From an uncultured Gammaproteobacteria bacterium (GTDB taxonomy: Bacteria > Patescibacteriota > Patescibacteriia > Magasanikbacterales > GWA2-37-8), in NCBI GenBank assembly GCA_964536615.1, contig CAZHYG010000001.1, positions 6,200-70,199 on the forward strand: a stretch of DNA of 64,000 nt, read 5' to 3'. The stretch's first letter is position 1, and the number at the start of each line of letters is the position of its first letter. Shown one piece after another: positions 7,212 through 30,327 of the stretch. The notes beneath the pieces are model-generated. The model saw only the letters and a list, made by a program, of their open reading frames with translations. It was not told the origin of the DNA and did no database searches. The position numbers and the translations under genes are program-made.

Positions 7212-7288
7212 TGGGTCGGTAGTTCAACTGGTTAGAGCACTGCCCTGTCACGGCAGAAGTTGCGGGTTCGAGTCCCGTCCGACCCGCC
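7212..7288 (+). tRNA. tRNA-Asp (anticodon GTC)
   Basis: Cloverleaf folds by hand: acceptor GGGTCGG/CCGACCC, anticodon loop CTGTCAC (GUC), T-loop TTCGAGT, encoded CCA; hairpin CCAC-ataa-GTGG plus T7 follows directly. Confidence 0.9.
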
Positions 7289-7402
7289 AGTTATTTCAAC
7301 ATAGAAACTCCACATAAGTGGTGTTTTTTTGTTTTAGTCTAGCGGAAATCGAGCTCACAACTTTTTTACTTTGAGATACCGAGAAGTTCCTCTCTTTGCT
7401 CC

Positions 7403-8661: not shown

Positions 8662-8804
8662 ATAGCGGAAAAAATTCAAATTTCAGAATCCCTGCCACAT
8701 GCTGGTAGGGTTCTTTTTTGTATTTGTATGGAGCGTACTTGACCATACGCAAACTTTTTGCTAACATCTTTTGTTGTTGGAACAAACCATGGAGGCAAGA
8801 GGGT

Positions 8805-9053
8805 ATGCGCGCGCAAAAATCAAGATTCTCTAACCACCGCAACTGGCTTCAAGCCGTCGTTCACTGGAACGGCGGTCCGGTCGAGTGTGCCGACCACTTC
8901 AAGTTCGATGACGGTCGGCTCAGGGGGCGGGTCCAGGTCGCCATGACGGTGTACTTCCCGGGCCTCATCGAGCTCGGGGTGGGTGCAACCTTCGGCGAGT
9001 GTGTGGCAGAACTGGAGTCGCGATTTCCCGATCGCTTCAGCGCTTCAGCCTGA
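8805..9053 (+). CDS. Hypothetical small protein (82 aa) at the start of a high-GC block
   Basis: GGAGG SD-like sequence upstream (ggaggcaagagggtATG); GC-rich codon usage with GC3 bias. Confidence 0.35.
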   Translation: MRAQKSRFSNHRNWLQAVVHWNGGPVECADHFKFDDGRLRGRVQVAMTVYFPGLIELGVGATFGECVAELESRFPDRFSASA

Positions 9054-9205
9054 TCGCACCCTGTCATCCATCCGAAACCAACAAGGAGGCAGCCTGGCCT
9101 CGTCGCATTCGTGCGGCGGGGCCTTTTCAATATGTATTCGCAACCTTGACCACAAGGTTCTTTTTTAGTATAAATTTCAGTTAGGTTAACCCAAGGAGAA
9201 GTGCC

Positions 9206-10243
9206 ATGGCGATGATTGATAGTCTTCCGGATAGGATCAAGCCCTATTGTCAGAACCCCGAGCTTACGGAGGTTCTGATCTATAAGATGAGGCTGATGGC
9301 CGCAGGTGAGATGTGCAAGGGTGATGATGTCATTTTGGCGCTACTTGGTCTTGCTGGTTTGGAGATCAAGGATTATCAGGCGCGAGAGGTTGCTCGACAT
9401 CTCATTAAGGTAGGATGGCTTGAGTTGGTTGGGGAAGATGATCGCTACGCTTTCACCGCTCGTGCAAGAAAGTGTAGCCAAGACCCTGCGGTCAAGCAGC
9501 GGTTTGATGAAATCAGCGCCGCACAGGATCGTTCTAGCTCTCGAAACAAGGTTCCTTCACCCAAGTCTGCCCGACTCGATCTCATTAGGAGGGTGGCAAG
9601 CAGAGACGGATCCGCCCCAAACTCCACTAGATCTGGCGGTGTTCCAGGCCTTTCACAGGACAGACTGGATATGTTGTTGCCGTTGTTTGTGGCGACGGAG
9701 GGTGGGAGCTTTTTCGTTGAAGCTGCTCGGAGAGCTAAAGAGCTTGGTTTCAGCACAACTCAAGCGTTCAACGGTACGCTTATGCTGCTCAAGCAAGCAG
9801 GGTGGCTGACGAAAGTTGCATATGGTGTAGTGCAGTGGGATCTGGAGAAGGTCCCGCCGAAGTGGCGTGAAGCGCTGCCAAAAAAGAGCGAGCTGTCTGC
9901 TTCTGAACAGGTTGAGGAAGCTTCTGAAACCAGCGAAGGTGCGGAAGATGGTGGTGGCGCTGTGACAGTTGAAGGCGAGTCTGCACCTGTCTCCGAAGTA
10001 GAGGGGGGCGAGAAACCTGATAGCGAATCGTCTGGTGACGAAGAAGTTGATGAAGATGTTCAGGTAGAAGTTGTGGTTGAGTCAGCGTTGCAGACTGATC
10101 AAATCGGCGAGTCGGAACCGCAGCGATTGTTTGGGTTGTTGTTGGCGGTCACTGTTGAAGGTCTCTACCGTCAGATTGAGTGCATGCCAAGAGAACTCCA
10201 GATCATGGTTCTCAATGCGCTCAATCAGCGGATTAATGAGTGA
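9206..10243 (+). CDS. Hypothetical protein (345 aa) with two similar N-terminal helical modules and a strongly acidic E/D/S-rich C-terminal region; high-GC foreign gene
   Basis: AAGGAG SD 8 nt upstream of the ATG. GC3-rich codons. The internal segments ...VILALLGLAGLEIKDYQAREVARHLIKVGWLEL... and ...FVEAARRAKELGFSTTQAFNGTLMLLKQAGWLTKV... resemble each other and look winged-helix-like. Acidic tail EEASETSEGAEDGGG...DEEVDEDVQVEVVVE. Confidence 0.6.
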   Translation: MAMIDSLPDRIKPYCQNPELTEVLIYKMRLMAAGEMCKGDDVILALLGLAGLEIKDYQAREVARHLIKVGWLELVGEDDRYAFTARARKCSQDPAVKQRFDEISAAQDRSSSRNKVPSPKSARLDLIRRVASRDGSAPNSTRSGGVPGLSQDRLDMLLPLFVATEGGSFFVEAARRAKELGFSTTQAFNGTLMLLKQAGWLTKVAYGVVQWDLEKVPPKWREALPKKSELSASEQVEEASETSEGAEDGGGAVTVEGESAPVSEVEGGEKPDSESSGDEEVDEDVQVEVVVESALQTDQIGESEPQRLFGLLLAVTVEGLYRQIECMPRELQIMVLNALNQRINE

Positions 10244-10340
10244 AGCAGATCCAGAAGGGGTAATTCACTCGTGTTAGGAATTAGGAGGGGTGTGCGGCGA
10301 GCCACATTAAAGCGCTTAATTGGCGTGCTCGCATATCTCA

Positions 10341-14312: not shown

Positions 14313-14354
14313 AAATAATATTTGTGCCACATGATGCCGTACAAGGCATTTCTG

Positions 14355-14772
14355 TGGAGGTGGCGAGAGTTGAACTCGCGTGTAGATAACTATGACTAAA
14401 CCGTCTACATACTTAGTGTCTCTTGGTGTGTCCTGGGCCAATAAAAGAGGACGAAAATTGGCTCAGCGAGCCGAGGAGACTTCACGATGCGATAATCGGC
14501 ATTACCGCCTCGCTACACTCAATGAATAACACCGTGGTTCGGTTATTGAGCATTGCCGATACGATGTCTCAAATCACGAAGGATCTGAGATAACCAGCAT
14601 GGTTCTTAGGCCATTACTGGAGCAAAGTTGGTGCTGAAAGCGTTAGCTACAGCAGACTTTACTTTTGATAACAAGTTTGCACTTATTATGTTGCTCCGTG
14701 TGATTTACGAGGAAAAGAGCTTCCTCGGTATGCAAGTGTAGCCAGAAGCTCCTATCGAAGCCCGGCACCCCC
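14355..14772 (-). ncRNA. ssrA: tmRNA (ssrA)
   Basis: On the minus strand the 5' end is GGGGGTGCCGGGCTTCGA... The 3' end ACGCGAG-TTCAACT-CTCGC-CACCTCC-A gives a tRNA-like T-arm plus acceptor stem pairing with the 5' GGGGGTG. An internal tag ORF starts at a GCA AAC resume context (ANLLSKVKSAVANAFSTNFAPVMA-stop). It lies immediately downstream of smpB. Confidence 0.85.
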
Positions 14773-14779
14773 GTGACCA

Positions 14780-15220
14780 TTAGTTTTTCATTGCTCTACC
14801 TAGCTCTCGTTTAAGCTCTCGTTTTTTGACAGACTCTCGTTTGTCGTAGAGCTTTTTTCCGCGAGCGATAGCCAGTTCAACTTTCACTAATCGTCCCTTA
14901 GTATACACATGCAAAGGCATAATTGTCAAGCCCTTTTCTTTGGATTTTTCCTGTAAATAAGCGATTTGTTTTTTATGGAGGAGAATTTCTCGTGATCTGG
15001 TGGGGTCGTAGTTTGGTAGGGGACCCGCCGCCTTATACTTGTTGATGTGCATGTTGAGTATATAAGCCCTGTTGTTATGAAAGGTAACATATGACCCTTT
15101 TAGGTTAATTTGGCCTGTTTTTGCCGACTTTACCTCTTGGCCAGTCAACACCAAACCAGCCTCCATTTTTTCAAGGATCTCAAATTCAAAAAATGCTTTT
15201 TTATTTTCCGCAAGGCTCAT
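14780..15220 (-). CDS. smpB: SsrA-binding protein SmpB
   Basis: MSLAENKKAFFEFEILEKMEAGLVLTGQEVKS...; 146 aa with a basic C-terminal tail. Confidence 0.95.
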   Translation of the reverse strand: MSLAENKKAFFEFEILEKMEAGLVLTGQEVKSAKTGQINLKGSYVTFHNNRAYILNMHINKYKAAGPLPNYDPTRSREILLHKKQIAYLQEKSKEKGLTIMPLHVYTKGRLVKVELAIARGKKLYDKRESVKKRELKRELGRAMKN

Positions 15221-18415: not shown

Positions 18416-21400
18416 ATGCTTAGAGAGCGTGTTTCCAACTCTGACTTTAAAGGCGCAGAAATCGGTAAGTATAAAAAAGGCAAGCGAGTAGTCGTTAATA
18501 TTGAAGGTGAGTGGCAAGTGCGAGAACTGTTTGCGCCTGCGGCTGTTGAAAAAGGCAAGCTAAAATTGACTCTTGATAAAGGTGATGAAATTTTTGTCGA
18601 TTCTCCTCCGAGAATTGTAAAATTTTCCAAGTTAGACACTTTAACCGACGATCGAAAAGGCGGGGATTTTGTTGTTCATGGTGCATTCGCCACTCAGGAT
18701 GGTCGTTTGGAATATAATCTTACAACACCTGACGGCAAGATGTATAAGGGTATACCGGAAGAATTTTTGGATGTCTGGTCAAAAACTGTGGCTATGGAAG
18801 CTGAGGTTGAAGATTTAGAAAATAATATACAAGCATTAGGGGTAAAAGCACAGAAAGATTTACATGAAAAAATAAGCAAATTAAAAACTGCCTTGATGGG
18901 TACTTTTGAAAATTTACCCAAAGATTTTAAGGCAATGACAAAATCAGGAAAAAAAGATGTTGCTAGTGCAGTCAAAAAAATTAAATCTTTGCATGCCGAG
19001 GCCGCTCGGCATATTGATGATTTGAGATTAAAAATAGACGAAGCTAAAGTTAATGGTGCCGGTAAAAAATCAAAAATCGAGCACACAGAGACTGATACAG
19101 ACAAGCAAACTAGAAAAGCGCAGGAAGAAGGCTCTGCCGCGTTTAAAACAAAAAAAGCAAAATCAGTGAAAGAGTTCATGGGAAAACGGCTGGAACAGGA
19201 CAAAGAAGAAGCGTTGGCAGATAAAAAAAGATCTGTTCGCAATGAATACGAGAGTAAATTAAAAGAATGGGAAGATCAAAAAAGAGCCATGGCTCGTCCG
19301 GAACCAAAACAGCCAAATTATAAGGCTATTCAGCTTGACGCTGTTGAAGAAAACACTATTAGGCAAGATTACGATAAGCAACTTGCACTAATGCCTCAAA
19401 AAATGGAATACGAAAATGCTATGGATATTAATCGCCACCTCGAGGATGGTTTTAACAGTCGGCGTACGCAGAAGCTTGATGAAGCCCTTGATGCAAAAAG
19501 AAAAAACACTAAAGATCCTAAGGCTGCTTTGAGCAAGCGCGAAGTAGCGATGGTTGAGAAAGAATTGCGCACCACATTGATTGGAGAGGCGGTAGAAGAT
19601 TTTTCAGAATTGAGTGCTGCGTTAGAGCAAAAAAGAAAAGCAATGGCTGCAAAAGAAGCAGACCCGAAAGCTGCCGGGGTTGATCCAAATACAGGCGATT
19701 ATCTATCTACTCGGCAAGAAGAAATCAACGCTCGTTTGTACGATGCTTTTATAAAAGAAAGAATTAAGCAGTACGATGTTGCTCGAAAAGATTTAGAAAG
19801 AGAAGAAAAAGATGAAATTTTTAAAGCATTAGAAAATAAAAAAGAAGAAGCGTATAAAAAGTTTTTAGCAGACAGCGCCGAGTGGGATATAGAAAAAAGC
19901 AAGCTTAAGAAGCGGCCTGATGAGCCTGTGGAAAGCAGTGTTGTATTAACAAAAGACGAAGAAAAACAGGTGGCTGCAAAATCAAAATTTGAAACTATTA
20001 AATATTTGGTTGATCAAAATACAGACCTTAAGTTTAGTTTGGTTAAAAAAAGAATGGAGAAAGCAAAAACAGATCCAGATAAAGAAAATATCATTACATT
20101 ATCAAACGGTGAATCTGATTATAATGATGATAAAAAAGATGAAGTAAATGCCGAATTATTTGATGAGGTGTTGGCAGATTGGGAAAAAACCTATGAGTTT
20201 AAAGAGAAAGAACACGATGCCAATGCAGAAATTTTTGATTTTACAAATGAAATAAATAAAATAAATGCTGCTGCGCTGGACTGTGAACAGTCTATTCCGC
20301 AAACAAATGGAGTACCGGATAAGCCGTACCAGGGAGTGTATAAGGAGCTGTTAAAAAATAAAAAAGATTTTGCCAACACTCTGACAGCGTTAAGCGGTAT
20401 AGATGCTGCTAAAAAAGCAGGTTTCATTGGAGCGGCCGATGGGCAAGAAGAGTTGTATAAGGCGCGCGAGCGAGAGGCCGAAAAAATTAATAAAATTATA
20501 GATGGGCTTACTCAACAAATAGAAAAAATAAAAACCATTGAAAGCTTTGGCGAGAAATTCGAACAAACAGAAAAAATGACGCCAATAGATTTGCGGTCTT
20601 CTTTGGTGGAAAGAATTTTGAGTTTAAATGTTGATCAAGCCAAAAAAGCTATGAAAGCGTTGTATCGCGGTGATGCAACGGAAGAATTTAAACAACTAAT
20701 TGGCGATACGCCGCCGGCTGGAATTTCTGAAGTTGAGTTACGCAAGGCAGGCATCAAAGATTGGGCTGATTTTAAAGAATTGTGGGATGCAAGATTGGCC
20801 AAGGAGGTGGCGGTCAATATGGAAGAAATGGCTAAGCAAAGAATTTTACAAAAAGTGGCCGAAGCTATGGATAGCCTTAGTGGTGTTTGGGAAAAAATTA
20901 AAGCCATAAAAGGACAAATGACACTTCGGGCTGGCTTAAGTGCTCTGCTTGTGGGCGGATCGGCAATGACGGCTCGAACACTGCTGGGTAGTTTTTCTGA
21001 AGTGCTTCATAGTGCGGCGGTAATGGCAGGCGGCGCGGCAGGCGGCGCGGGAAAATGGTTGGTGGGCAGTAAGCTTTTTGGTAAAGACAGCGCCTGGGGA
21101 AAAGATGGCGCAAAAGCGATGCAAAAATTACAAGCCAAAACAGCAGATGATTTAGTTGATAGTATTGTGGACGAAGCTTTTGAATTTGCGTTTTCTCCGG
21201 TTCAGCCGCCAGTGCAAAAAGGATTTTTTAGAAAAATGTGGTCTTTTGTTTCTAAACCAAGCGAGCAGGAATTTACTAAAACGCAGCATAAAAAACACAT
21301 GCTTGACGGCATGCCAATGATGAGTTCGGTAATTGCCGGTACGATTAGAGATATAACCGGAGGCAGTCTTGAAGTAGAAACTGCTGAAGGCAAAGTTACC

Positions 21401-24127
21401 TTAAGTGGCGCAAATAGAATTAAGTTTGAAAAAGCATTAGGTCGTCTAGAAACCCAAAATCCCGAAGAAGAGCAGGTTAAAAATCTAGCTTTGGTTTTTG
21501 CAAAAATGTCTCAAAAAGGCGATGAGCTGCAAGCTCAAATGAAACATTTGGGACCAGGCAAGGCATCGCTTGGCGATACATGGCTGCAAAATTATTCTGG
21601 TCGCGGCAGTTTGGGCAAATCGGTGGCGATAAATTCCGCTTTAGCAGGTGTATTTTTGGCATCGAGTACAGCCAGGGCTGCGTTTGGCGCGGTTGTTGGT
21701 GCGTATAGTGGCTATAAAACCGGCGAAAGAATGTTTGCCAAAAAAGAACAGCAAGTTGCTAAAGAAAAATTGTTGGAAAAAATTTCTCATTTTACTTACG
21801 GAGTCCAATCATTTGAGGCGCTTACTCCTCAAGCAAAAATTGCGTTTAAAGCTGATTTAATATACCTTAAGAAATTCTTACACGGAAATGCCGCTCAGGA
21901 AGATCTATTGGCCGCAGTGCAAATTACCGAAGCTGGGCCAGTCGTAGACCAAATGCTTCTTTCGCAGATAGAAAGCTTGATTCACGAGGCGGAAGATATG
22001 GGTGCGTTAATAGAAAATAAAGAAGATGGGATGAATTTAGAAAAAGTATTGGCAGCCATGCAAGAATATCAGGGCAAAATTTCTGAAAAAGATAAGAAAA
22101 AAGTTGGTGAGCGATTTGCAAGATGGCTGGCAAAAGGAGTGTACAAGTTTGGCGGTGCCGCAGTCGGTGGCGCGGCAAGTGCTGGAATATATCTTGTTGG
22201 CGGGCCATTAATTGGAAAGGCTGTTGGAGCATTGCGTTCAAAACTTGGTTTGGGTGCAACACATGATCTTGTATCAACTGAGTCTGCAAAGAACATTGCT
22301 GTAGAACATATCGACGGATTAGAATCATACCAAGACAACTCCAGTGCTTTAGAGCGTGCAGATGGTTTGGTTTCGTATCCAGACGGTTCCGGTTTTGCAG
22401 AAAATATAAATCCAGATGTAGCAAACTTTGCAGCCGAACATCATTTAAGCGAACATTCAGCCCAATATCTAAATCAATTTGGTTCGTTGCAAACACACCC
22501 AGAATCGCTTAATAGAATTTTGGAAGCAAGCCATATTGGAGGTGATGGCCGCTCGCATTTTACCGGCAGTAAATTAGATAATCTTATAGAAGTTGGCGGT
22601 GAGCGTCGCGCTGTGATTTTTGAAGAGTTGTTAAAACATGATAAGCAAGCAGCGATTAAATTTTTGGAAGATCAAGATTTTAGCAAACAGCACCTTACCC
22701 ACCTGGCTGTTTTTGCAGACAAAAAAGGCCATGTTGACTTTGTTAAATTTGTAGAGAAATATAATCCAAATGATAAAAAAATGTCCTTGGCTTTGTTTAA
22801 AGCCATGCAAGGTAAAGAAAACACCGAGCTGGCCAATGCTGGGTTTGTCCGTGCAGCCACAGCTGATCATACAGGCCGAATAGTTCAAGTAAAAGGCGGG
22901 GTGGAATATTTCGGCTTGGATAAAAATGGTAAGCCAATTTTGAGCGGAGATGGCCAGGTGATGGTGAGAGAAACTATTTTGAGGACAGGTTCAGCAGCTG
23001 AACATAACGAAGGTTTAAGTACTGATGATAAATTATGGGCAAATGCCAATGTTATGCGCGGTATGCGGGCTGACGGCACCCCATTTGAAGGTGATACCAA
23101 AAATGTTTTGCCTGAATTTTCACCTAAAGGTATCGCTCAGTTTATGCAAGGCGAAGCAGATAAAGCTCAGTTTGCTAAAATGGGCGAAGAGCATATCAAT
23201 GCGTTGGACAGACCGATTGGTAGAAATGATGTTACTCTTACCAAATTTAACGTAACCCATTTACTGGATAAAGAGGGTAATCCAATTGAGCGAAGGACTT
23301 TTGCAGAACAGCCTGCCGAATCTCCGGTACCAGATAATGCGTTCAAACCACTTAAGAATCCTCAAACAAGCAAAGAAATTGCTGGTAAAACAGCCGCTAT
23401 CTATACTGCTGATAAACTAGTGGAAAGAGGGCAGGTTGTGGGAAATAGAGGGGTGAGAAGTAGTTCTCCTTCAGAAGAAATGGTTTCTCGAAGTGAATTT
23501 GCGCAAACTGAAGAAGTTAATTCTTCTCCTTTGGTTGAAGCTGGATCAGAAACAAAACCCGCAGCAAAAGTTGAAACTACACCCAATACTTTAGAGTTAA
23601 CGGAAGCGCAGAGAGATTATGTAGATAAGCTAAATAATGTATTTAGATCTCTTACTGAAAATGAAATCGGTCAAAAAATGGACTCATACACGTTTAAAAA
23701 TGATTCTGAAAATGTAATATATAATGCTATAACTAATGAGTCAGCTTTTAAAAACTTCAGAGACTATATTGAAAGCCTTTCAAATAATAAGCAACCAAGC
23801 TTAAGTCAGCAAGAAATAAGAGAGTTTGACAACCTGTTAAAAACTTACGATGCTGGTAACCAAAATTGGTACAAGATGATTAAAAATGACGAGCTTCGCT
23901 TGATGCTTGATCCTAGTGACGCATCTATGGTTGCAAATAATAGTCATGCAGTAAGAATTTGGGACCAGGAAAAACAGGAAGAGTTGTTTATTACCAACCC
24001 TCAGTATACTTTTGTAACAAAAGGTGATAGCCTCTTGAAAATGGATGGTGATAGAGTGGTGGATACATGGAAAAACTACAAAGAAGCGATTGCTACCGCT
24101 AGACAGTCTTCAAATATGAATAGATAA
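18416..24127 (+). CDS. Giant (1903 aa) K/E-rich coiled-coil low-complexity protein with Gly/Ala-rich amphipathic segments and a ~500-aa globular C-terminal region
   Basis: Uninterrupted 5.7-kb ORF in host-like codon usage. Segments such as AGGAAGGAGKWLVGSKLFGKDSAWGKDG and GGAAVGGAASAGIYLVGGPLIGKAVGAL. A strong hairpin terminator lies downstream. Confidence 0.75.
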   Translation: MLRERVSNSDFKGAEIGKYKKGKRVVVNIEGEWQVRELFAPAAVEKGKLKLTLDKGDEIFVDSPPRIVKFSKLDTLTDDRKGGDFVVHGAFATQDGRLEYNLTTPDGKMYKGIPEEFLDVWSKTVAMEAEVEDLENNIQALGVKAQKDLHEKISKLKTALMGTFENLPKDFKAMTKSGKKDVASAVKKIKSLHAEAARHIDDLRLKIDEAKVNGAGKKSKIEHTETDTDKQTRKAQEEGSAAFKTKKAKSVKEFMGKRLEQDKEEALADKKRSVRNEYESKLKEWEDQKRAMARPEPKQPNYKAIQLDAVEENTIRQDYDKQLALMPQKMEYENAMDINRHLEDGFNSRRTQKLDEALDAKRKNTKDPKAALSKREVAMVEKELRTTLIGEAVEDFSELSAALEQKRKAMAAKEADPKAAGVDPNTGDYLSTRQEEINARLYDAFIKERIKQYDVARKDLEREEKDEIFKALENKKEEAYKKFLADSAEWDIEKSKLKKRPDEPVESSVVLTKDEEKQVAAKSKFETIKYLVDQNTDLKFSLVKKRMEKAKTDPDKENIITLSNGESDYNDDKKDEVNAELFDEVLADWEKTYEFKEKEHDANAEIFDFTNEINKINAAALDCEQSIPQTNGVPDKPYQGVYKELLKNKKDFANTLTALSGIDAAKKAGFIGAADGQEELYKAREREAEKINKIIDGLTQQIEKIKTIESFGEKFEQTEKMTPIDLRSSLVERILSLNVDQAKKAMKALYRGDATEEFKQLIGDTPPAGISEVELRKAGIKDWADFKELWDARLAKEVAVNMEEMAKQRILQKVAEAMDSLSGVWEKIKAIKGQMTLRAGLSALLVGGSAMTARTLLGSFSEVLHSAAVMAGGAAGGAGKWLVGSKLFGKDSAWGKDGAKAMQKLQAKTADDLVDSIVDEAFEFAFSPVQPPVQKGFFRKMWSFVSKPSEQEFTKTQHKKHMLDGMPMMSSVIAGTIRDITGGSLEVETAEGKVTLSGANRIKFEKALGRLETQNPEEEQVKNLALVFAKMSQKGDELQAQMKHLGPGKASLGDTWLQNYSGRGSLGKSVAINSALAGVFLASSTARAAFGAVVGAYSGYKTGERMFAKKEQQVAKEKLLEKISHFTYGVQSFEALTPQAKIAFKADLIYLKKFLHGNAAQEDLLAAVQITEAGPVVDQMLLSQIESLIHEAEDMGALIENKEDGMNLEKVLAAMQEYQGKISEKDKKKVGERFARWLAKGVYKFGGAAVGGAASAGIYLVGGPLIGKAVGALRSKLGLGATHDLVSTESAKNIAVEHIDGLESYQDNSSALERADGLVSYPDGSGFAENINPDVANFAAEHHLSEHSAQYLNQFGSLQTHPESLNRILEASHIGGDGRSHFTGSKLDNLIEVGGERRAVIFEELLKHDKQAAIKFLEDQDFSKQHLTHLAVFADKKGHVDFVKFVEKYNPNDKKMSLALFKAMQGKENTELANAGFVRAATADHTGRIVQVKGGVEYFGLDKNGKPILSGDGQVMVRETILRTGSAAEHNEGLSTDDKLWANANVMRGMRADGTPFEGDTKNVLPEFSPKGIAQFMQGEADKAQFAKMGEEHINALDRPIGRNDVTLTKFNVTHLLDKEGNPIERRTFAEQPAESPVPDNAFKPLKNPQTSKEIAGKTAAIYTADKLVERGQVVGNRGVRSSSPSEEMVSRSEFAQTEEVNSSPLVEAGSETKPAAKVETTPNTLELTEAQRDYVDKLNNVFRSLTENEIGQKMDSYTFKNDSENVIYNAITNESAFKNFRDYIESLSNNKQPSLSQQEIREFDNLLKTYDAGNQNWYKMIKNDELRLMLDPSDASMVANNSHAVRIWDQEKQEELFITNPQYTFVTKGDSLLKMDGDRVVDTWKNYKEAIATARQSSNMNR

Positions 24128-24148
24128 TTGATAATAACTAAAAAGTTA

Positions 24149-24188
24149 GAAAAACCTTGGTGAAAACCTAAGGTTTTTCTTTTATTTT
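24149..24188 (+). terminator. Rho-independent terminator after the giant gene
   Basis: GAAAAACCTTGG-tgaaaa-CCTAAGGTTTTTC followed by a T-rich tract. Confidence 0.65.
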
Positions 24189-24220
24189 AGCCAAAAATAC
24201 CCAAAAATACCTTCTAGCTA

Positions 24221-24249
24221 TTGACAAAAATAACAATGTATGGTATAGT
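24221..24249 (+). promoter_or_regulatory. Near-consensus promoter TTGACA-N17-(TGg)TATAGT directed into the high-GC island
   Basis: ctaTTGACAaaaataacaatgtatggTATAGTg. Confidence 0.55.
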
Positions 24250-24277
24250 GCTCTATCGTTTGAAAGATGGCAGTATT

Positions 24278-24360
24278 GCGAGAGGTATTGCCAAACCTAT
24301 TAAACGAATGAATAGTCATGTTAGTTTTTTACAACCTCTCTCGCAAAGTGAGGTTTTACT
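24278..24360 (+). promoter_or_regulatory. Leader region with mutually exclusive hairpins (attenuator-like) and a possible 25-codon leader ORF
   Basis: GCGAGAGGT (24278-86) pairs with ACCTCTCTCGC (24334-44). This overlaps a terminator-like AACCTC-tctcgcaaagt-GAGGTT plus a U-run (24333-24360). The ORF ATGaatagtcat... (24308) spans both. Confidence 0.35.
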
Positions 24361-24492
24361 GTTTCTAATTAGCGCGTCAATGTAATAGTTGATGTGCGAA
24401 CCGGTAACGGTAACACTCGTGCGCTTCGTGTGGTCGAGTGACCTTGCGAAGCAAACGGGAGTGAGGCGCCTTAGATGCGCCTTGGAGGTTCC

Positions 24493-25224
24493 ATGCACAC
24501 GCCTTCCTCGGGTACGCAGCAGATCACTGGCCAGCAGGCCGCCGTCAAGACCCAGGTCATCGATCGTGGCGGCTGGTCGAGCTGGGCCAGGCTCGCCTTC
24601 GTCGCGCTGGCTGTGATGCTCATCACCGGGCTCATCGCCTGGTCGGTGGTGGGTGGCGGCAAGAAGCCGTCCGCCGCGGGTGGCAGCGTCCACCACGCCG
24701 CCGACGGTGGTGTTGCCAGCGACGACAAGCCGGTCGTCGAGGCCACGAAGCCGCCCACGGTCGCGCTCGACCTGAGCCCGCTCAACACGAGCTTGAACGA
24801 GCTCAACACCACCTTGGGTGGCATGGGCGATAGCATCGCCAGCAAGGTCGGCGAGAAGATGGACGAGAGCAACGAGGTGATCGTCCAGAAGCTCGACCAG
24901 CTGCTCGCGCAGCAGGCCAAGCCGGATGATTCGTCCGGTGGCTCGGCAGGGGACAAGACCGACGACACCAAGGTCAACGGTGGCAGTGATGCCAAGCCAC
25001 CGTGCGACGATCATCTCAAGGCGCTCACGATCGAAGATCGTGTTGGCGCGCTAGAGACGTGGCGTACCGGGGTCGACAAGACCCTCAAGCGCCACACCCG
25101 GCAGATTCGTCGGATCAACGACCGCCTCGGTCAGCTCAGTGGTGCGCAGGTCACCGACCTGCCCGGCTACAAGACCGCGGTGGCGACCCACAGCGCTGTC
25201 GTGCACCTGAAGTACGACAAGTAG
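24493..25224 (+). CDS. Membrane-anchored (single N-terminal TM) coiled-coil protein; high-GC foreign gene
   Basis: GGAGGT SD 5 nt upstream. GC3-rich codons. TM WARLAFVALAVMLITGLIAWSVV, then a hydrophilic helical region. The antisense ORFs on the other strand are R/D-rich and judged spurious. Confidence 0.6.
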   Translation: MHTPSSGTQQITGQQAAVKTQVIDRGGWSSWARLAFVALAVMLITGLIAWSVVGGGKKPSAAGGSVHHAADGGVASDDKPVVEATKPPTVALDLSPLNTSLNELNTTLGGMGDSIASKVGEKMDESNEVIVQKLDQLLAQQAKPDDSSGGSAGDKTDDTKVNGGSDAKPPCDDHLKALTIEDRVGALETWRTGVDKTLKRHTRQIRRINDRLGQLSGAQVTDLPGYKTAVATHSAVVHLKYDK

Positions 25225-25573
25225 ATTCCTCCTCAACCAGGCTGTCGTCAGATCGAGAAATCGAACTGACAACGCCTCAAGAGGGGAAGACGGGATGTTC
25301 TTCGCAAGAAGAGCATCCCGGGAGAAAATCATCTTCTTAAAACATATCATGTATTAGGAATATGATAAGCTCTAACAAAGCGAAAAGAAAATATAGTTCT
25401 TTAAAATTAAAAAACAAACAAAAGTAACCGTTGTTCCGTATTTATTATATTTATTAATATATATAAATAAATATATATAGTAAGTACGGAGCGACGGTTA
25501 AAAACACCGTCACCAACAACTCCCAGGCCCAACGGCCTGAAACCGGCCGTTGTGGCCAACCTTTGCCGGCTCT
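25217..25573 (+). repeat. 357-bp intergenic cassette, copy 1 (identical to 26458..26814)
   Basis: Begins at the last codons (caagtag) of the upstream gene. Contains two GNRA-tetraloop hairpins (GTCAGATCGA-GAAA-TCGAACTGAC; GGATGTTCTTC-GCAA-GAAGAGCATCC) and a TATCAT/ATGATA inverted repeat. A 44-bp AT-rich block is flanked by the imperfect inverted repeat aaccgttgttccgta/tacggagcgacggtt, followed by GACGGT-taaaaac-ACCGTC and CAACGGCC-tgaaacc-GGCCGTTG hairpins. Confidence 0.85.
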
Positions 25574-25601
25574 AATGGAGCCAGAATTGCGAGTTCAGTC
25601 A

Positions 25602-26465
25602 ATGAAGACGATCCTTTGCGTGATGATGCTTGCCATCGCAACCTTCGGCGGCAACGCCAAGGCACAGCCCCGGGTCACCGTGACGCAGGACGTGCCGCCC
25701 CCGGAGCCCTGTGCTCCGGGCCAGCCGCGTGACACGGTCTCGCACGACGCCTCGGGCGTCGACGAGACCATCAAGGTCAACGGCCTCGAGACCCCGTGTC
25801 TCGAGCTCACGGTCCACCTGCCCAAGGCGATGGATCCGGCGCTTGCGCCGATCATCCCCACGGCCCCCATCGACAACGATGGTGGCCTGGATCGCCACGG
25901 CACGAGCACCAACGATCTCATCGAGATCTCGCGCACGGCTGCCTCGGCGGCCAACGAGGTCGCAAAGGCTCAGGCGCGGTGGAACTTCGGGCTGGCGAGC
26001 CAGGTGCTCGCGGTCTCGCACAAGGGCACGACCGCCTCGTATGGCCTCCTCGGCCTGTACGGTGTACGTGCCACCCGGGCCACGCTCGTTCAGCTGCAGG
26101 GTGGTCTCGGCAAGGACAGCGAGGGGAATCTCGCTATCGGCGCCGCGCTCATGGCGGGATACAAGGTCGGTGAGCGTGCTGCTGTTGGCATCGCGCTCAC
26201 CGGCACCGATTCCATCGATCAGAGGGGAGACAAGGATCGCGAGGTCCTCATGCTCCGTTCGGTCGGGGTCGGCCCCAGCGTCACGATGACGTTGGGCAGC
26301 ACCGTCAACGTCACCATCGCTGGTGGCGTGGCATGGAGCGGTAAGCCCATTGATGGGCGTCGTGTGGACGGTGTCCTGGTCGAAGAGCCGGGGCGTTCTT
26401 ACGCCTTCGGTGGCTACGGCACGGTCACGCTGAACCTCGGCCTCAAGGGCCTGTTCAGCAAGTAG
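25602..26465 (+). CDS. Secreted protein (signal peptide, beta-rich C-terminal half); high-GC foreign gene
   Basis: MKTILCVMMLAIATFGGNAKA-QP signal peptide. Alternating hydrophobic beta-strand-like pattern (VTMTLGSTVNVTIAGGVAWSG...YGTVTLNLGLKGLFSK). GC3-rich. Confidence 0.6.
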   Translation: MKTILCVMMLAIATFGGNAKAQPRVTVTQDVPPPEPCAPGQPRDTVSHDASGVDETIKVNGLETPCLELTVHLPKAMDPALAPIIPTAPIDNDGGLDRHGTSTNDLIEISRTAASAANEVAKAQARWNFGLASQVLAVSHKGTTASYGLLGLYGVRATRATLVQLQGGLGKDSEGNLAIGAALMAGYKVGERAAVGIALTGTDSIDQRGDKDREVLMLRSVGVGPSVTMTLGSTVNVTIAGGVAWSGKPIDGRRVDGVLVEEPGRSYAFGGYGTVTLNLGLKGLFSK

Positions 26466-26814
26466 ATTCCTCCTCAACCAGGCTGTCGTCAGATCGAGAA
26501 ATCGAACTGACAACGCCTCAAGAGGGGAAGACGGGATGTTCTTCGCAAGAAGAGCATCCCGGGAGAAAATCATCTTCTTAAAACATATCATGTATTAGGA
26601 ATATGATAAGCTCTAACAAAGCGAAAAGAAAATATAGTTCTTTAAAATTAAAAAACAAACAAAAGTAACCGTTGTTCCGTATTTATTATATTTATTAATA
26701 TATATAAATAAATATATATAGTAAGTACGGAGCGACGGTTAAAAACACCGTCACCAACAACTCCCAGGCCCAACGGCCTGAAACCGGCCGTTGTGGCCAA
26801 CCTTTGCCGGCTCT
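26458..26814 (+). repeat. 357-bp intergenic cassette, copy 2
   Basis: Base-for-base the same as 25217..25573 by reading, again starting at the caagtag stop region of the preceding gene and ending at gccggctct just before the next gene's RBS. Confidence 0.85.
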
Positions 26815-26834
26815 TCGGAGCCATGGAGAAAGAC

Positions 26835-28185
26835 GATGAAGAAGCTGATGATGTATCTGGTGTGCGTGGCGGCCCTCACGGGCTGCCTCCTCGAGAATGG
26901 CAAGGTCGTCGACGAGACGACCGACGCTGGTGTCGACGCCTCCGAGAGCAAGTGTACGGTCACCATCCGAGCGACCGACAGCATCGCCAACGAGAACGGC
27001 GACACCGCCATGGTGCAGTTCGAGCGGAGCAACTGCTCCCTCGACAAGCAGCTCGAGGTCAAGTTCGACCTCAGCGGTACGGCCAGCAGCTCCGACTACG
27101 TGGGGCTCGCGGAGTGGTACGCCCTCATCCCTGCCGGTCAGACCGAGGCCACCATCGTGGTGGTCCCGTTCAACGACACGATCGACGAGAGCGACGAGAC
27201 CCTGATCTTCACCATCCGTCCGGAGCCCCACCTCATCGTGGGTGCGCCGGCCGCGGCGACGGTGACGATCACCGATGACGACAGCCCGCCGCCCACGCCG
27301 TTCCTGAACTTCAGCTGCAGCCCCAACGGCATCACTGCCGGCGGTAGCAGCACCTGCACGTGGACTTCGAACGCCACGGCGTGCACGCTCTCCGGTGGCC
27401 AGTTCGGCTCCGGGGTGGCTCAGGCGGGTAACGGTTCGGTCGTGGTGAGCAACATCACCACGACCACGACTTTCGGCATGACCTGTAACAACGGTCAGAC
27501 CAAGTCGTCGACGGTGACGGTCAATACGCAGCAGCAGTGCACTGGCAACGGTACCCTGACGGCGAACACCCTGTTCATCGTCGTGGGGAGCCCCATCGAC
27601 TTGGACGCGACGTTCAACTGTCCGTCCGGTACGATCGCCCGAGTCGAGTTCAAGGTGGGTAGCACCACCCTCTGCACCGACACGAGCGCGGCCTACCACT
27701 GCGACTGGGACAATGCCACTGTCGGCACGCACACCGTCATCGCGACGGCGTACTCGGCGAGTGGCACCCAGCTCCAGCAGACCAACCCCCTCCAGATCGA
27801 GGTGGCGCAGACGTCGCAGCAGGTGTCGTGTCACGGCCTCGGCCTCTACTTCTCCAACACCCAGGTGAACAACATCACCCGGTGCACGAAGTGGAGCGCT
27901 ACGGGGTCGGGTACCGACATCGCCAAGTCGACGTTCGTGGATGGCGGTCTGGGCGCTTGCGCCCTGACCTGCTACGACCTCACGGGTAACACGGTCCTGC
28001 CGCTGGCGGTGACCGGTGTCTGGCTGCAGAACGGAACGAGCGACGTCACCCGGTGGTACACCAGTGGCTGCGCGCGGCTCCCGTGGCACCCCGCTGCCGA
28101 GCCCGACCAGGCTGGTGGCGCCTGGGACCGGCTTTGCGATCGTTCGGTCGCCAGCCTGAGTGGTCCGCCCAACACCAACCAGTAG
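26835..28185 (+). CDS. Lipoprotein with a Calx-beta-like domain and Cys-rich Ig-like repeats; high-GC foreign gene
   Basis: GGAG SD. MKKLMMYLVCVAALTGC lipobox (LTGC). Calx-beta-like motif DYVGLAEWYALIPAGQTEATIVVVPFNDTIDESDETLIFTI. Many Cys and Thr/Ser-rich beta segments. Confidence 0.6.
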
Positions 28186-28502
28186 TGGTGGACAAAGGTT
28201 CCCGAACCTAAAAAATCGGAAATGTCCGCGCCATTGATGTGAATCGAGGGTGTGGCAAGAGTCTTATCCGCGGGTTCTTCGGAACCCGCGCGATTGAATC
28301 AGTTTCTTACTTGTATAGAATAGGGAACTGATACTGATCGAAAACAATTAATACTAGTGTCAAAAAATAGAAAGTAGGTTACAATAGACCTACTTTAAAA
28401 TTATCATTCGAGATTTGAAAATAGTTTATTTTTAAATCTCGGGCAATAATACCCGACAAGTTCGGCTCATTTCCCGCCTGATGCGGGTGAATCGGGGTTG
28501 CA

Positions 28503-29249
28503 ATGAAGATTTTCTGCTGTCTGGTGCTAGTCATCACCGCTTGCTCCTTTAACCCGTCGGGTTCGCTCGACGGAGAGGTAGATGCAATGGGTGATGGAGT
28601 AGTCCTCACCCCCGACGCCCAGATCGATGCGCCCATCGATGCTCCGCCGCCCTTGGTGGCGAGCATTGTGGGAGACTGCTACGTCCGCCCGCAGGCTCCG
28701 CCTGCCGACGGGGTGACCGTGGGTCGTCCCAAGACCCTGGTCTGCCTCGCGGAAGCGAGGCAGTGTACGGCGACCAACAGCCGCGTTCCGAGCGCTCCGC
28801 TTCCCATGACCCCACCGGTCCAACCTGGTGTGGGCGAGTGGGAGGTTTCGTTCACCCCGGTGTTCACCGGTGTGAACGAGTTCACCTTCACCTGTGAAGG
28901 TGATGTGGGTAGTGTGGCGACTGCAGGACCGCTGGCACTTCATGCCATGTCCTTGCAGATCACCGAAGGAGTTTCGGTGATCGACCAGAGCCTCGGGCAG
29001 TACCAACTGCTCAATCGCAACGGTCGAATCCGGCTCGTCTGGGGTATCCCGGACGATCCAACGCCCCAAACGTGCGGCAACTCGGTTTCCGGGCTGCCAA
29101 CGGTCAACATCGGAAGTGGAGGGCGTCCGTGCGTGGGCGAAATCTACGACCTGCTTGTTCCAACGAACGGACCAGCGGGGACAGTGGTTCTTCGCTTCTC
29201 GTCGGCGTTGTATGTGGGGTCTGTGTCTGTTGCAGTGCCGGCCTCGTAG
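28503..29249 (+). CDS. Lipoprotein, paralog 1 of a tandem pair; high-GC
   Basis: MKIFCCLVLVITAC lipobox-like signal. 611 bp (28604..29214) are identical to 29474..30084. Confidence 0.6.
   Translation: MKIFCCLVLVITACSFNPSGSLDGEVDAMGDGVVLTPDAQIDAPIDAPPPLVASIVGDCYVRPQAPPADGVTVGRPKTLVCLAEARQCTATNSRVPSAPLPMTPPVQPGVGEWEVSFTPVFTGVNEFTFTCEGDVGSVATAGPLALHAMSLQITEGVSVIDQSLGQYQLLNRNGRIRLVWGIPDDPTPQTCGNSVSGLPTVNIGSGGRPCVGEIYDLLVPTNGPAGTVVLRFSSALYVGSVSVAVPAS
28604..29214 (+). repeat. Tandem duplication unit, copy 1 (611 bp identical to 29474..30084)
   Basis: Direct comparison of the two blocks shows identity through ...cggcgttgtatg, then divergence; the period is 870 bp. Confidence 0.85.
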
Positions 29250-29387
29250 GGTTGGAGGGTGTAGTAAGAGGAAGAAATTCGAGGTGTAGACAGTGTTGGC
29301 AGGGTATCTTCCTCACAGAAATTTTTCCATCATTATTTGGTGGTGGAAAATAAGCTGTGCAAATCAAGCAAGAGGCCAGGAGGCCAC

Positions 29388-30119
29388 ATGTCTCTCAGAA
29401 CATTGTTTGCAGTGTTGTTGACGATAGTTTGTGGTGGCGGATGTAATCTGGTCTTCGGACTGGATGAGGTTCGCCTCACCCCCGACGCCCAGATCGATGC
29501 GCCCATCGATGCTCCGCCGCCCTTGGTGGCGAGCATTGTGGGAGACTGCTACGTCCGCCCGCAGGCTCCGCCTGCCGACGGGGTGACCGTGGGTCGTCCC
29601 AAGACCCTGGTCTGCCTCGCGGAAGCGAGGCAGTGTACGGCGACCAACAGCCGCGTTCCGAGCGCTCCGCTTCCCATGACCCCACCGGTCCAACCTGGTG
29701 TGGGCGAGTGGGAGGTTTCGTTCACCCCGGTGTTCACCGGTGTGAACGAGTTCACCTTCACCTGTGAAGGTGATGTGGGTAGTGTGGCGACTGCAGGACC
29801 GCTGGCACTTCATGCCATGTCCTTGCAGATCACCGAAGGAGTTTCGGTGATCGACCAGAGCCTCGGGCAGTACCAACTGCTCAATCGCAACGGTCGAATC
29901 CGGCTCGTCTGGGGTATCCCGGACGATCCAACGCCCCAAACGTGCGGCAACTCGGTTTCCGGGCTGCCAACGGTCAACATCGGAAGTGGAGGGCGTCCGT
30001 GCGTGGGCGAAATCTACGACCTGCTTGTTCCAACGAACGGACCAGCGGGGACAGTGGTTCTTCGCTTCTCGTCGGCGTTGTATGGCGGATCAATCAGTGT
30101 GGAGGTCCCGGCCTCGTGA
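29388..30119 (+). CDS. Lipoprotein or secreted protein, paralog 2 of the tandem pair; high-GC
   Basis: AGGAGG SD 5 nt upstream of ATG (MSLRTLFAVLLTIVCGGGC). The body is identical to paralog 1 except the N-terminal signal region and the last ~10 residues. Confidence 0.6.
   Translation: MSLRTLFAVLLTIVCGGGCNLVFGLDEVRLTPDAQIDAPIDAPPPLVASIVGDCYVRPQAPPADGVTVGRPKTLVCLAEARQCTATNSRVPSAPLPMTPPVQPGVGEWEVSFTPVFTGVNEFTFTCEGDVGSVATAGPLALHAMSLQITEGVSVIDQSLGQYQLLNRNGRIRLVWGIPDDPTPQTCGNSVSGLPTVNIGSGGRPCVGEIYDLLVPTNGPAGTVVLRFSSALYGGSISVEVPAS
29474..30084 (+). repeat. Tandem duplication unit, copy 2
   Basis: Identical to 28604..29214. Confidence 0.85.
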
Positions 30120-30327
30120 TTCGCACAAGGAGAAGCACCGAGGTTGAGGTTGTATATGGCAAGCGCTTCTCCTGTCTCGCAATATTATTATCAAAAATTG
30201 GTAATAATATCTGAGATAAAAAAACAGACAAACCAATCTATAATTGTTCATCAAACTTGGTGAATAACCATAGACAGATTTATCTGCCTAACAAAATTAC
30301 CATCCGATTACCCGAATAAATAATTTA

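Follow-up and report, generated by a model that had tools for sequence, protein, structure and literature searches.

The first gene of a GC-rich island in the stretch of DNA analyzed here (64,000 nt; hereafter the window) is preceded by about 237 nt, from ~24256 to 24492, that very probably constitute a functional, sense-strand structured 5' leader with a strong promoter of its own. Rfam has no model for the leader, which is probably a new regulatory RNA, restricted to its lineage. The reading that we favor, at a rough probability of 0.4, is that it works as a factor-dependent two-state switch, in which a small hairpin (T) alternates with a pseudoknot between the loop of the first hairpin (P1) and the core of the leader. 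Positions are those of the window, and features lie on the plus strand unless stated otherwise.

Results

We found an extended −10 promoter of the sigma-70 type at 24221..24249, comprising TTGACA (24221-26), a 17-nt spacer, TG (24241-42), one further base, and TATAGT (24244-49). It matches 11 of 12 box positions and carries the TG, and it was the sole site of this quality among the eight 11/12 sites of the 64-kb window (block shuffles led us to expect 1.95 sites that score at least 11/12, and 0.11 that also carry TG). Both boxes and their spacing were invariant in 7/7 relatives, with variation confined to the sequence of the spacer. The TTGACA-N17-TGgTATAGT promoter proposed in the initial annotation was thus borne out, being present, conserved, and the best in the window. 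The initial region that follows, GCUCUA (24250..24255), was invariant in the alignment (A4), and the distance to the −10 box would place the transcription start at ~24255-24257. The window promoter scan returned no promoter-like site between hairpin T and the first island gene (g1). Of the other 11/12 sites, one (7148) precedes the tRNA-Asp gene and one (14929) lies on the strand of the tmRNA gene, so promoters close to consensus may be a mark of heavily transcribed RNAs in this genome. The match at 14929 (minus strand) sits within the smpB ORF, and the tag peptide predicted for the tmRNA itself (14354-14772, minus strand), ANLLSKVKSAVANAFSTNFAPVMA, is unusually long.

The giant ORF upstream, of 1903 aa, ends at 24127 and is followed by an intrinsic terminator (24148..24190), a hairpin and U-run whose 13-bp stem leads into UUUUAUUUU. 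The stability of this hairpin was −17 kcal/mol in the window and in the relatives L012 and L018, both strands of the stem differing with the hairpin kept. Because this terminator is strong and conserved, read-through from the giant gene into the island is unlikely, which disfavors the alternative to a leader promoter that the initial annotation had allowed for. Together with its equivalents in L004, L012, and L018, the terminator also serves as an internal standard for a real terminator in this lineage. The giant protein (window 18416-24127; L012 2880-7325; L022 9769-14469) has no Pfam domain and ranges from 1481 to 1903 aa among relatives; in L022 its gene is broken into several ORFs, either as a pseudogene or by sequencing frameshifts.

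The leader folded far beyond its shuffles in three diverged variants (z −5.7 to −6.6). On the plus strand, the minimum energy was −44.4 kcal/mol over 145 nt (z −4.4) and −92.6 kcal/mol over 245 nt (z −6.6), as against z −2.0 on the minus strand; the values for L012 and L018 were z −6.1 and −5.7, respectively. Numerous G-U pairs make the leader structures specific to the sense RNA.

The leader and its promoter were also kept upstream of homologous islands. Compared with L004, whose g1 is 74% identical, the segment 24258-24437 was 97-100% identical and its flanks 65-92%. In L012 and L018, the g1 proteins are only 34-46% identical, and part A of the leader (24250-24366) retained 75% and 84% identity, respectively, against ~50% for part B, 59-66% for g1 DNA, and 71-74% for the 3'-terminal 300 nt of the giant gene. 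Conservation fell steeply past 24367, and identity along the locus as a whole was mosaic. Within part A, conservation sat in three places: GCUCUAUCGUUU.AAAGAU.GC.GUAUUGCGAGAGGU, CUCUCGCAAAGUGAG, and the beginning of the U-run. These comparisons draw on only three independent sequence variants of the leader. The GTDB scan for leader variants returned one near-identical copy, the JGI pattern scan one new variant (L018) and two chance matches (L016 and L017), and protein-guided look-ups L012, L019, and L022, the last with a window-type leader. No paralogous copy of the leader was found in the window or the island, where it is single-copy.

P1, the 5'-proximal hairpin of 52 nt (24256..24307), has a stem of 8+2+10 bp and an invariant loop, GCGAGA(GG), at 24278-24285. 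Its energy was −17.7 to −20.3 kcal/mol (z −4.2 to −5.1), and ~98% of its stem positions were paired, compared with 38-50% when the partners were slid against each other. In the stem, five changes were one-sided but compatible, and one pair was compensatory, G-C becoming A-U and, in the recombinant L019, G-U. Owing to four G-U pairs, the structure exists only in plus-strand RNA. An AU-rich linker of 25-30 nt follows (24308..24332), variable in sequence and holding an ATG at 24308-24310.

Beyond hairpin T lies a long hairpin, P3 (24356..24413), in which UUACUGUU (24356-63) pairs with AACGGUAA (24406-13) below an upper stem at 24372-24397. The same architecture was predicted independently in the window, L012, and L018 from unrelated upper-stem sequences (z −3.8, −7.1, and −7.5 in the three variants), and the lower stem showed two compensatory changes in L012 (C-G to U-A and G-C to A-U). 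As the MAFFT alignment of P3 was inconsistent with the structure, the evidence for P3 lies in these independent folds. The remaining 3' part of the leader (24414..24492) is GC-rich and variable, ~50% identical to L012 and L018, and has no promoter-like site; it includes the hairpin P5 (24465-24481) and the Shine-Dalgarno sequence GGAGG (24484-24488). Each variant has a hairpin immediately 5' of its Shine-Dalgarno sequence. We also considered whether the core or the 5' end might sequester the Shine-Dalgarno sequence and dropped the idea, since such pairing appeared in single-variant predictions only and was not conserved.

Hairpin T (24333..24355) encloses a 15-mer, CUCUCGCAAAGUGAG (24338-24352), that was invariant in all variants, its AAA loop included. 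The terminator-like AACCUC..GAGGUU of the initial annotation was indeed present at 24333-24355 and is followed by the U-tract, UUUUACUGUUU. The hairpin appeared in the minimum-energy fold together with P1 and in the RNAalifold consensus, in two registers, with one compensatory pair in register 2 and two pairs broken in L012. As a terminator it looks weak: the stem has 6-9 bp, its z of −1.8 to −3.7 is marginally above chance, and its energy is −5.7 to −10.9 kcal/mol versus −17 kcal/mol for the real terminator 170 nt upstream. A consensus scan for terminator-like sites gave 11 observed against 9.7 expected. In addition, the U-tract after T forms the 5' strand of the covarying lower stem of P3, so its conservation does not require a terminator role. 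The hairpin and U-run named in the initial annotation are thus present, but the hairpin is weak.

The segment CUCUCGC (24338-44) has two alternative partners, namely GUGAG within hairpin T and the P1 loop GCGAGAGG, and all three segments were invariant amid diverged neighboring sequence. The pairing of 24278-86 with 24334-44 had been noted before, and we confirmed that GCGAGAGG(T) is complementary to (A)CCUCUCUCGC, with a duplex energy of −12.5 to −16.8 kcal/mol that exceeds that of T. The loop-core helix has 8 bp and was compatible in 100% of the sequences, with a G-U pair replaced by G-C in L012. By our own estimate, a 7-bp complement within ~110 nt is expected ~0.4 times by chance; the evidence thus lies in the conservation of the segments and not in their complementarity. 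Because the segments of the loop-core helix and of T are invariant, covariation cannot discriminate between the two pairings. Invariance is, however, what a two-state switch predicts for one segment serving two alternative partners.

The initial annotation had described these two folds as mutually exclusive. Their three-way complementarity exists and is invariant, but a nested antiterminator, which must melt P1, was 4.5-6.5 kcal/mol less stable than P1 with T, its probability at equilibrium being ≤0.15%. If the core instead paired with the P1 loop as a pseudoknot, this could coexist with P1, and a rough estimate using a generic penalty would put this state within a few kcal/mol of P1 with T.

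The known RNA families gave no identity for the leader. With Rfam 15 at the gathering threshold, only the tmRNA and a tRNA were detected in the whole window. In permissive scans of the region at E≤10, one of them over 23900-24900, only microRNA, sRNA, and snoRNA models overlapped the leader, and the matches at E<0.1 (BSnc120, and L20_leader on the minus strand) fell on the terminator of the upstream gene (24074-24198). The suggestion of a riboswitch thus gained no support, with no known riboswitch or leader family matched; nor did the leader contain aptamer-like conserved junction nucleotides. Of the attenuation architecture that had been proposed, the autonomous promoter, the structured leader, and the three invariant segments were supported, whereas the leader peptide and the riboswitch were not, and the terminator hairpin is weak.

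We looked specifically at JUMPstart/ops elements because of the neighboring Wzz and Wzy_C genes, the variable cluster, and the recombination boundary. The JUMPstart model RF01707 recognized the E. coli K-12 rfb element at 60 bits (positive control) and gave no match in the leader at E≤10. The 8-mer shared with JUMPstart, AGTGCTCT, lies in a non-consensus part of that element, and we rejected it as coincidental, the covariance model missing the leader. The ops consensus GGCGGTAG was absent; the equivalent stretch reads GGCAGTAT, AGCGGTAT, or AGCAGTAT, lacks G8, and has variable positions that covary as an RNA stem. A Pfam scan of 30 window ORFs (64 kb of genome) yielded no member of a KOW or NusG family.

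One relative, L019, is a recombinant at the leader. Up to its position 199 it was window-type at 55 of 55 diagnostic sites, and it was L018-type from position 222 onward at every diagnostic site listed for its positions 1-340, and further on its window-by-window identity to L018 was 88-100%. The crossover falls within 24270-24291 (L019 199-222), that is, in the invariant arm and loop of P1, and we judged this identical stretch of 22 nt too short for an assembler-made chimera. The leader is therefore the left boundary for the exchange of island alleles. The mosaic also means that leader conservation is partly confounded as evidence of function, although the compensatory changes and the strand asymmetry are not explicable by recombination.

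The jump in GC content starts at ~24385. The first island gene, g1 (24493..25224), encodes a membrane-anchored protein and starts at the second of two ATGs, behind GGAGG. In L005, a frame-breaking insertion separates the two ATGs and the gene was called from the second one; since the insertion puts the upstream ATG out of frame, the true start is at 24493. The g1 family had 7 matches in 1.84 billion representative proteins, and a PDB search with the g1 profile returned nothing meaningful. The rest of the GC3-rich array (25225..30119, plus strand) consists of g2 (25602-26465), g3 (26836-28185; a Big_7/Calx-beta lipoprotein), and the 98% duplicates g4 and g5 (28503-29249 and 29388-30119), with AT-rich spacers between genes. 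The proteins encoded downstream of the leader are secreted or membrane proteins. The g4/g5 repeat (28593-29249 versus 29463-30119) is a 98% identical tandem with a period of 870 bp, and the near-identical strain L001 has a single copy, so the copy number differs among strains.

GC3 was 0.83-0.89 in g1-g3, 0.68 in g4-g5, and 0.59-0.85 in the array of L012, against 0.32-0.41 in host genes. The spacers of the five-gene array, which spans 24385-30120 in the window and 7726-13225 in L012, are AT-rich, at ~40% GC. Two of them, 25218-25560 and 26459-26800 (after g1 and g2), were 100% identical over ~340 nt, pointing to a recent event of gene conversion or to a modular cassette junction. Each of these two spacers holds a pair of hairpins immediately past the stop codon, an extremely AT-rich stretch with a promoter-like TTAATA-16-TATAGT, and a GC-rich 5' UTR filled with hairpins.

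The locus of L012, on a 109-kb contig, is syntenic with that of the window: a PDZ-like gene and Wzz come first, then a pair of small genes, the giant gene (1481 aa), and five GC-rich genes, and lastly Wzy_C on the opposite strand and GHL15. The array spacers are homologous and collinear between the two, and the g1 protein of L012 is 34% identical to that of the window. Independent assemblies from ENA, Logan, JGI, and NCBI share the junction between giant gene and GC-rich genes; an assembly chimera behind the GC jump was rejected on finding the same junction in at least 5 independent assemblies and in diverged relatives. Searches for a phage or defense origin of the island gave no PHROGs, NCBIfam, or viral-contig match, and no donor was visible, g3 having only domain-level Calx-beta/Big_7 relatives outside the lineage.

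Given this synteny, the homologous spacers, the diverged g1, and the lack of a visible donor, the island is an old, resident, and fast-evolving locus that is compositionally foreign. The initial annotation had spoken of a foreign operon. The array is compositionally alien, as that term implies, but it is not a recent insertion, since relatives whose g1 proteins are only 34-46% identical have it at an equivalent position, between homologous intergenic regions; the word operon, too, is qualified by internal spacers that carry promoter-like sites of their own. Likewise, the GC3 anomaly is not a matter of simple recent transfer and amelioration. An array GC3 of ~0.8 in a genome of ~0.35, together with 34% protein identity, contradicts simple amelioration and, on a speculative reading, would point to an active process, for instance selection in favor of foreign codon usage, or a recombination hotspot with biased gene conversion.

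The gene content of the window (DUF5663, an LtaS-like sulfatase, PilD, and small housekeeping genes) and relatives on 0.75-Mb contigs suggest a Patescibacteria-like host. The only GTDB representative contig with the locus, L011 (CAZLNR010000022.1, 10.6 kb), comes from a wastewater or river MAG labeled Gammaproteobacteria; in view of the Patescibacteria-like gene content, this contig may be mis-binned. A second GC-rich patch was observed at 8800-10250 of the window, 1.5 kb from tRNA-Asp (7213-7289), with 53% GC at 9001-10000. It contains an ORF (9206-10243; 52% GC) matching no Pfam, PHROGs, or other family, and it may be another acquired segment.

Discussion

As a factor-dependent switch, the leader would work as follows. 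Transcription would start at the extended −10 promoter after termination of the giant gene, and the RNA would fold into P1, the AU-rich linker, T, the long P3, and the hairpins before the Shine-Dalgarno sequence. CUCUCGC would then pair locally with GUGAG, giving T followed by the U-run, where T might act as a conditional terminator or pause site; or it would pair with the exposed P1 loop as a putative pseudoknot, for which P1 need not melt. The choice between the two states would be tipped by a candidate factor acting in trans, be it protein, small RNA, or ligand, and this in turn would set the share of transcripts continuing into, or productively expressing, g1.

This arrangement resembles terminator/antiterminator leaders (riboswitch platforms, PyrR, LicT/RAT, and ANTAR) in having its own promoter, a long 5' UTR, one segment with two partners, a hairpin and U-run ~100 nt from the start, and a single downstream gene start. 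It differs from them in its stem of only 6-9 bp, in an alternative partner that lies in a hairpin loop and thus implies a pseudoknot topology, and in showing neither a recognizable aptamer nor a known protein-binding motif.

The most serious competitor, which we consider unlikely all the same, is a constitutive 5' UTR that stabilizes the mRNA or tunes its translation in the manner of ompA and involves no switching. P1 and the other helices would shield a highly expressed mRNA for a surface protein from decay that depends on its 5' end and would set the accessibility of the Shine-Dalgarno sequence, with T as a small helix stacked on P3. Like ompA-type 5' UTRs, the leader is long and structured, opens with a stem-loop at its 5' end, and precedes a gene for an envelope protein. 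P1 is very stable and begins 0-2 nt from the putative 5' end, the whole leader is rich in helices (z ~ −6 in three variants), T adjoins P3, the U-tract is paired, and P1 with T dominates the nested ensemble; the secreted and membrane nature of the downstream products fits as well. What this account leaves unexplained is why the P1 loop and the 15-nt core, AAA loop included, are invariant while stems and linker change, and why every variant keeps a perfect complementarity between loop and core. A pure stabilizer needs neither an invariant loop and distal 15-mer nor their mutual complementarity. Another idea, that part A is an independent small RNA of ~100 nt (P1, linker, T, and U-run) made from a very strong promoter, with g1 expressed by leaky read-through, deserves little credence, although its anatomy is typical of small RNAs, two other near-consensus promoters in this window accompany tRNA-Asp and the tmRNA strand, and conservation drops at the end of part A. 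As a terminator T is poor, and covariation of the U-run with the downstream strand of P3 argues that selection acts on the read-through transcript; moreover, g1 has no promoter of its own and the element is single-copy. No target complementarity was identified for part A. The trp-type attenuation implied by the initial annotation is hardly tenable. The proposed ORF of 25 codons (24308-24385) exists in the window and spans T, but it lacks a Shine-Dalgarno sequence, L004 has ATA in place of its ATG, L012 has no such ORF, and L018 differs in start, frame, and stop. Judging from these comparisons of sequence, the leader peptide is no part of the mechanism.

The setting of the leader brings further alternatives into view. 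JUMPstart regions have been described as recombination boundaries, and the leader, likewise a boundary for recombinational exchange, shares with the JUMPstart/ops elements of RfaH-dependent polysaccharide, hemolysin, and pilus operons a conserved, promoter-proximal position at the entrance of a variable and atypical surface-structure cluster, here with Wzz and an O-antigen-ligase-like gene as neighbors. It could then be a signal for processive antitermination (of the JUMPstart/ops-RfaH, LoaP, UpxY, put, or EAR type) that modifies RNA polymerase directly or via a NusG paralogue, so that polymerase crosses the hairpin-rich alien array; the strong hairpins in the island spacers are in keeping with this. 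We regard it as improbable, however, given the silence of RF01707, the non-consensus nature of the shared 8-mer, the missing G8, the lack of a NusG-like protein among the window ORFs tested, and the promoter-like sites within the spacers. In contrast to JUMPstart, the leader contains a 52-nt RNA hairpin with a covarying stem, and its host is Patescibacteria-like, not enterobacterial. The RNA-only processive antiterminators, put RNA of phage HK022 and EAR RNA of Bacillus, are also promoter-proximal, structured, cis-acting RNAs before a multigene cluster, but the leader has no sequence or model similarity to them (Rfam, 23900-24900, E≤10). Finally, the conserved block might have no RNA function, being a homology arm for the exchange of island alleles or the trace of a recent sweep. 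The L019 mosaic and the mosaic identity along the locus favor this view, which nevertheless seems very improbable, because it does not account for strand-asymmetric folding, stems rich in G-U pairs, the compensatory changes in P1 and P3, or z ~ −6, and because the coding flank would be equally usable as a homology arm and yet is less conserved.

On balance, we prefer the two-state switch. A more specific version, in which the leader represents a hitherto undescribed class of regulatory pseudoknot RNA whose invariant 22-nt P1 loop region is at once the sensor arm of the switch and a fixed crossover point for swapping whole array alleles among strains, in a low-GC and probably episymbiotic bacterium, is a speculation that we think unlikely to hold.

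If the leader were only a stabilizing UTR, the finding would be an ordinary one. Whatever the mechanism, the locus brings together a conserved non-coding element that serves as a recombination boundary, a variable array, and a persistent anomaly of codon composition. If the switch is real, a poorly known uncultured lineage with very few known cis-regulators would gain a new structured regulatory RNA, and the switch would form the control point of fast-diversifying envelope proteins that probably contact other cells or phages.
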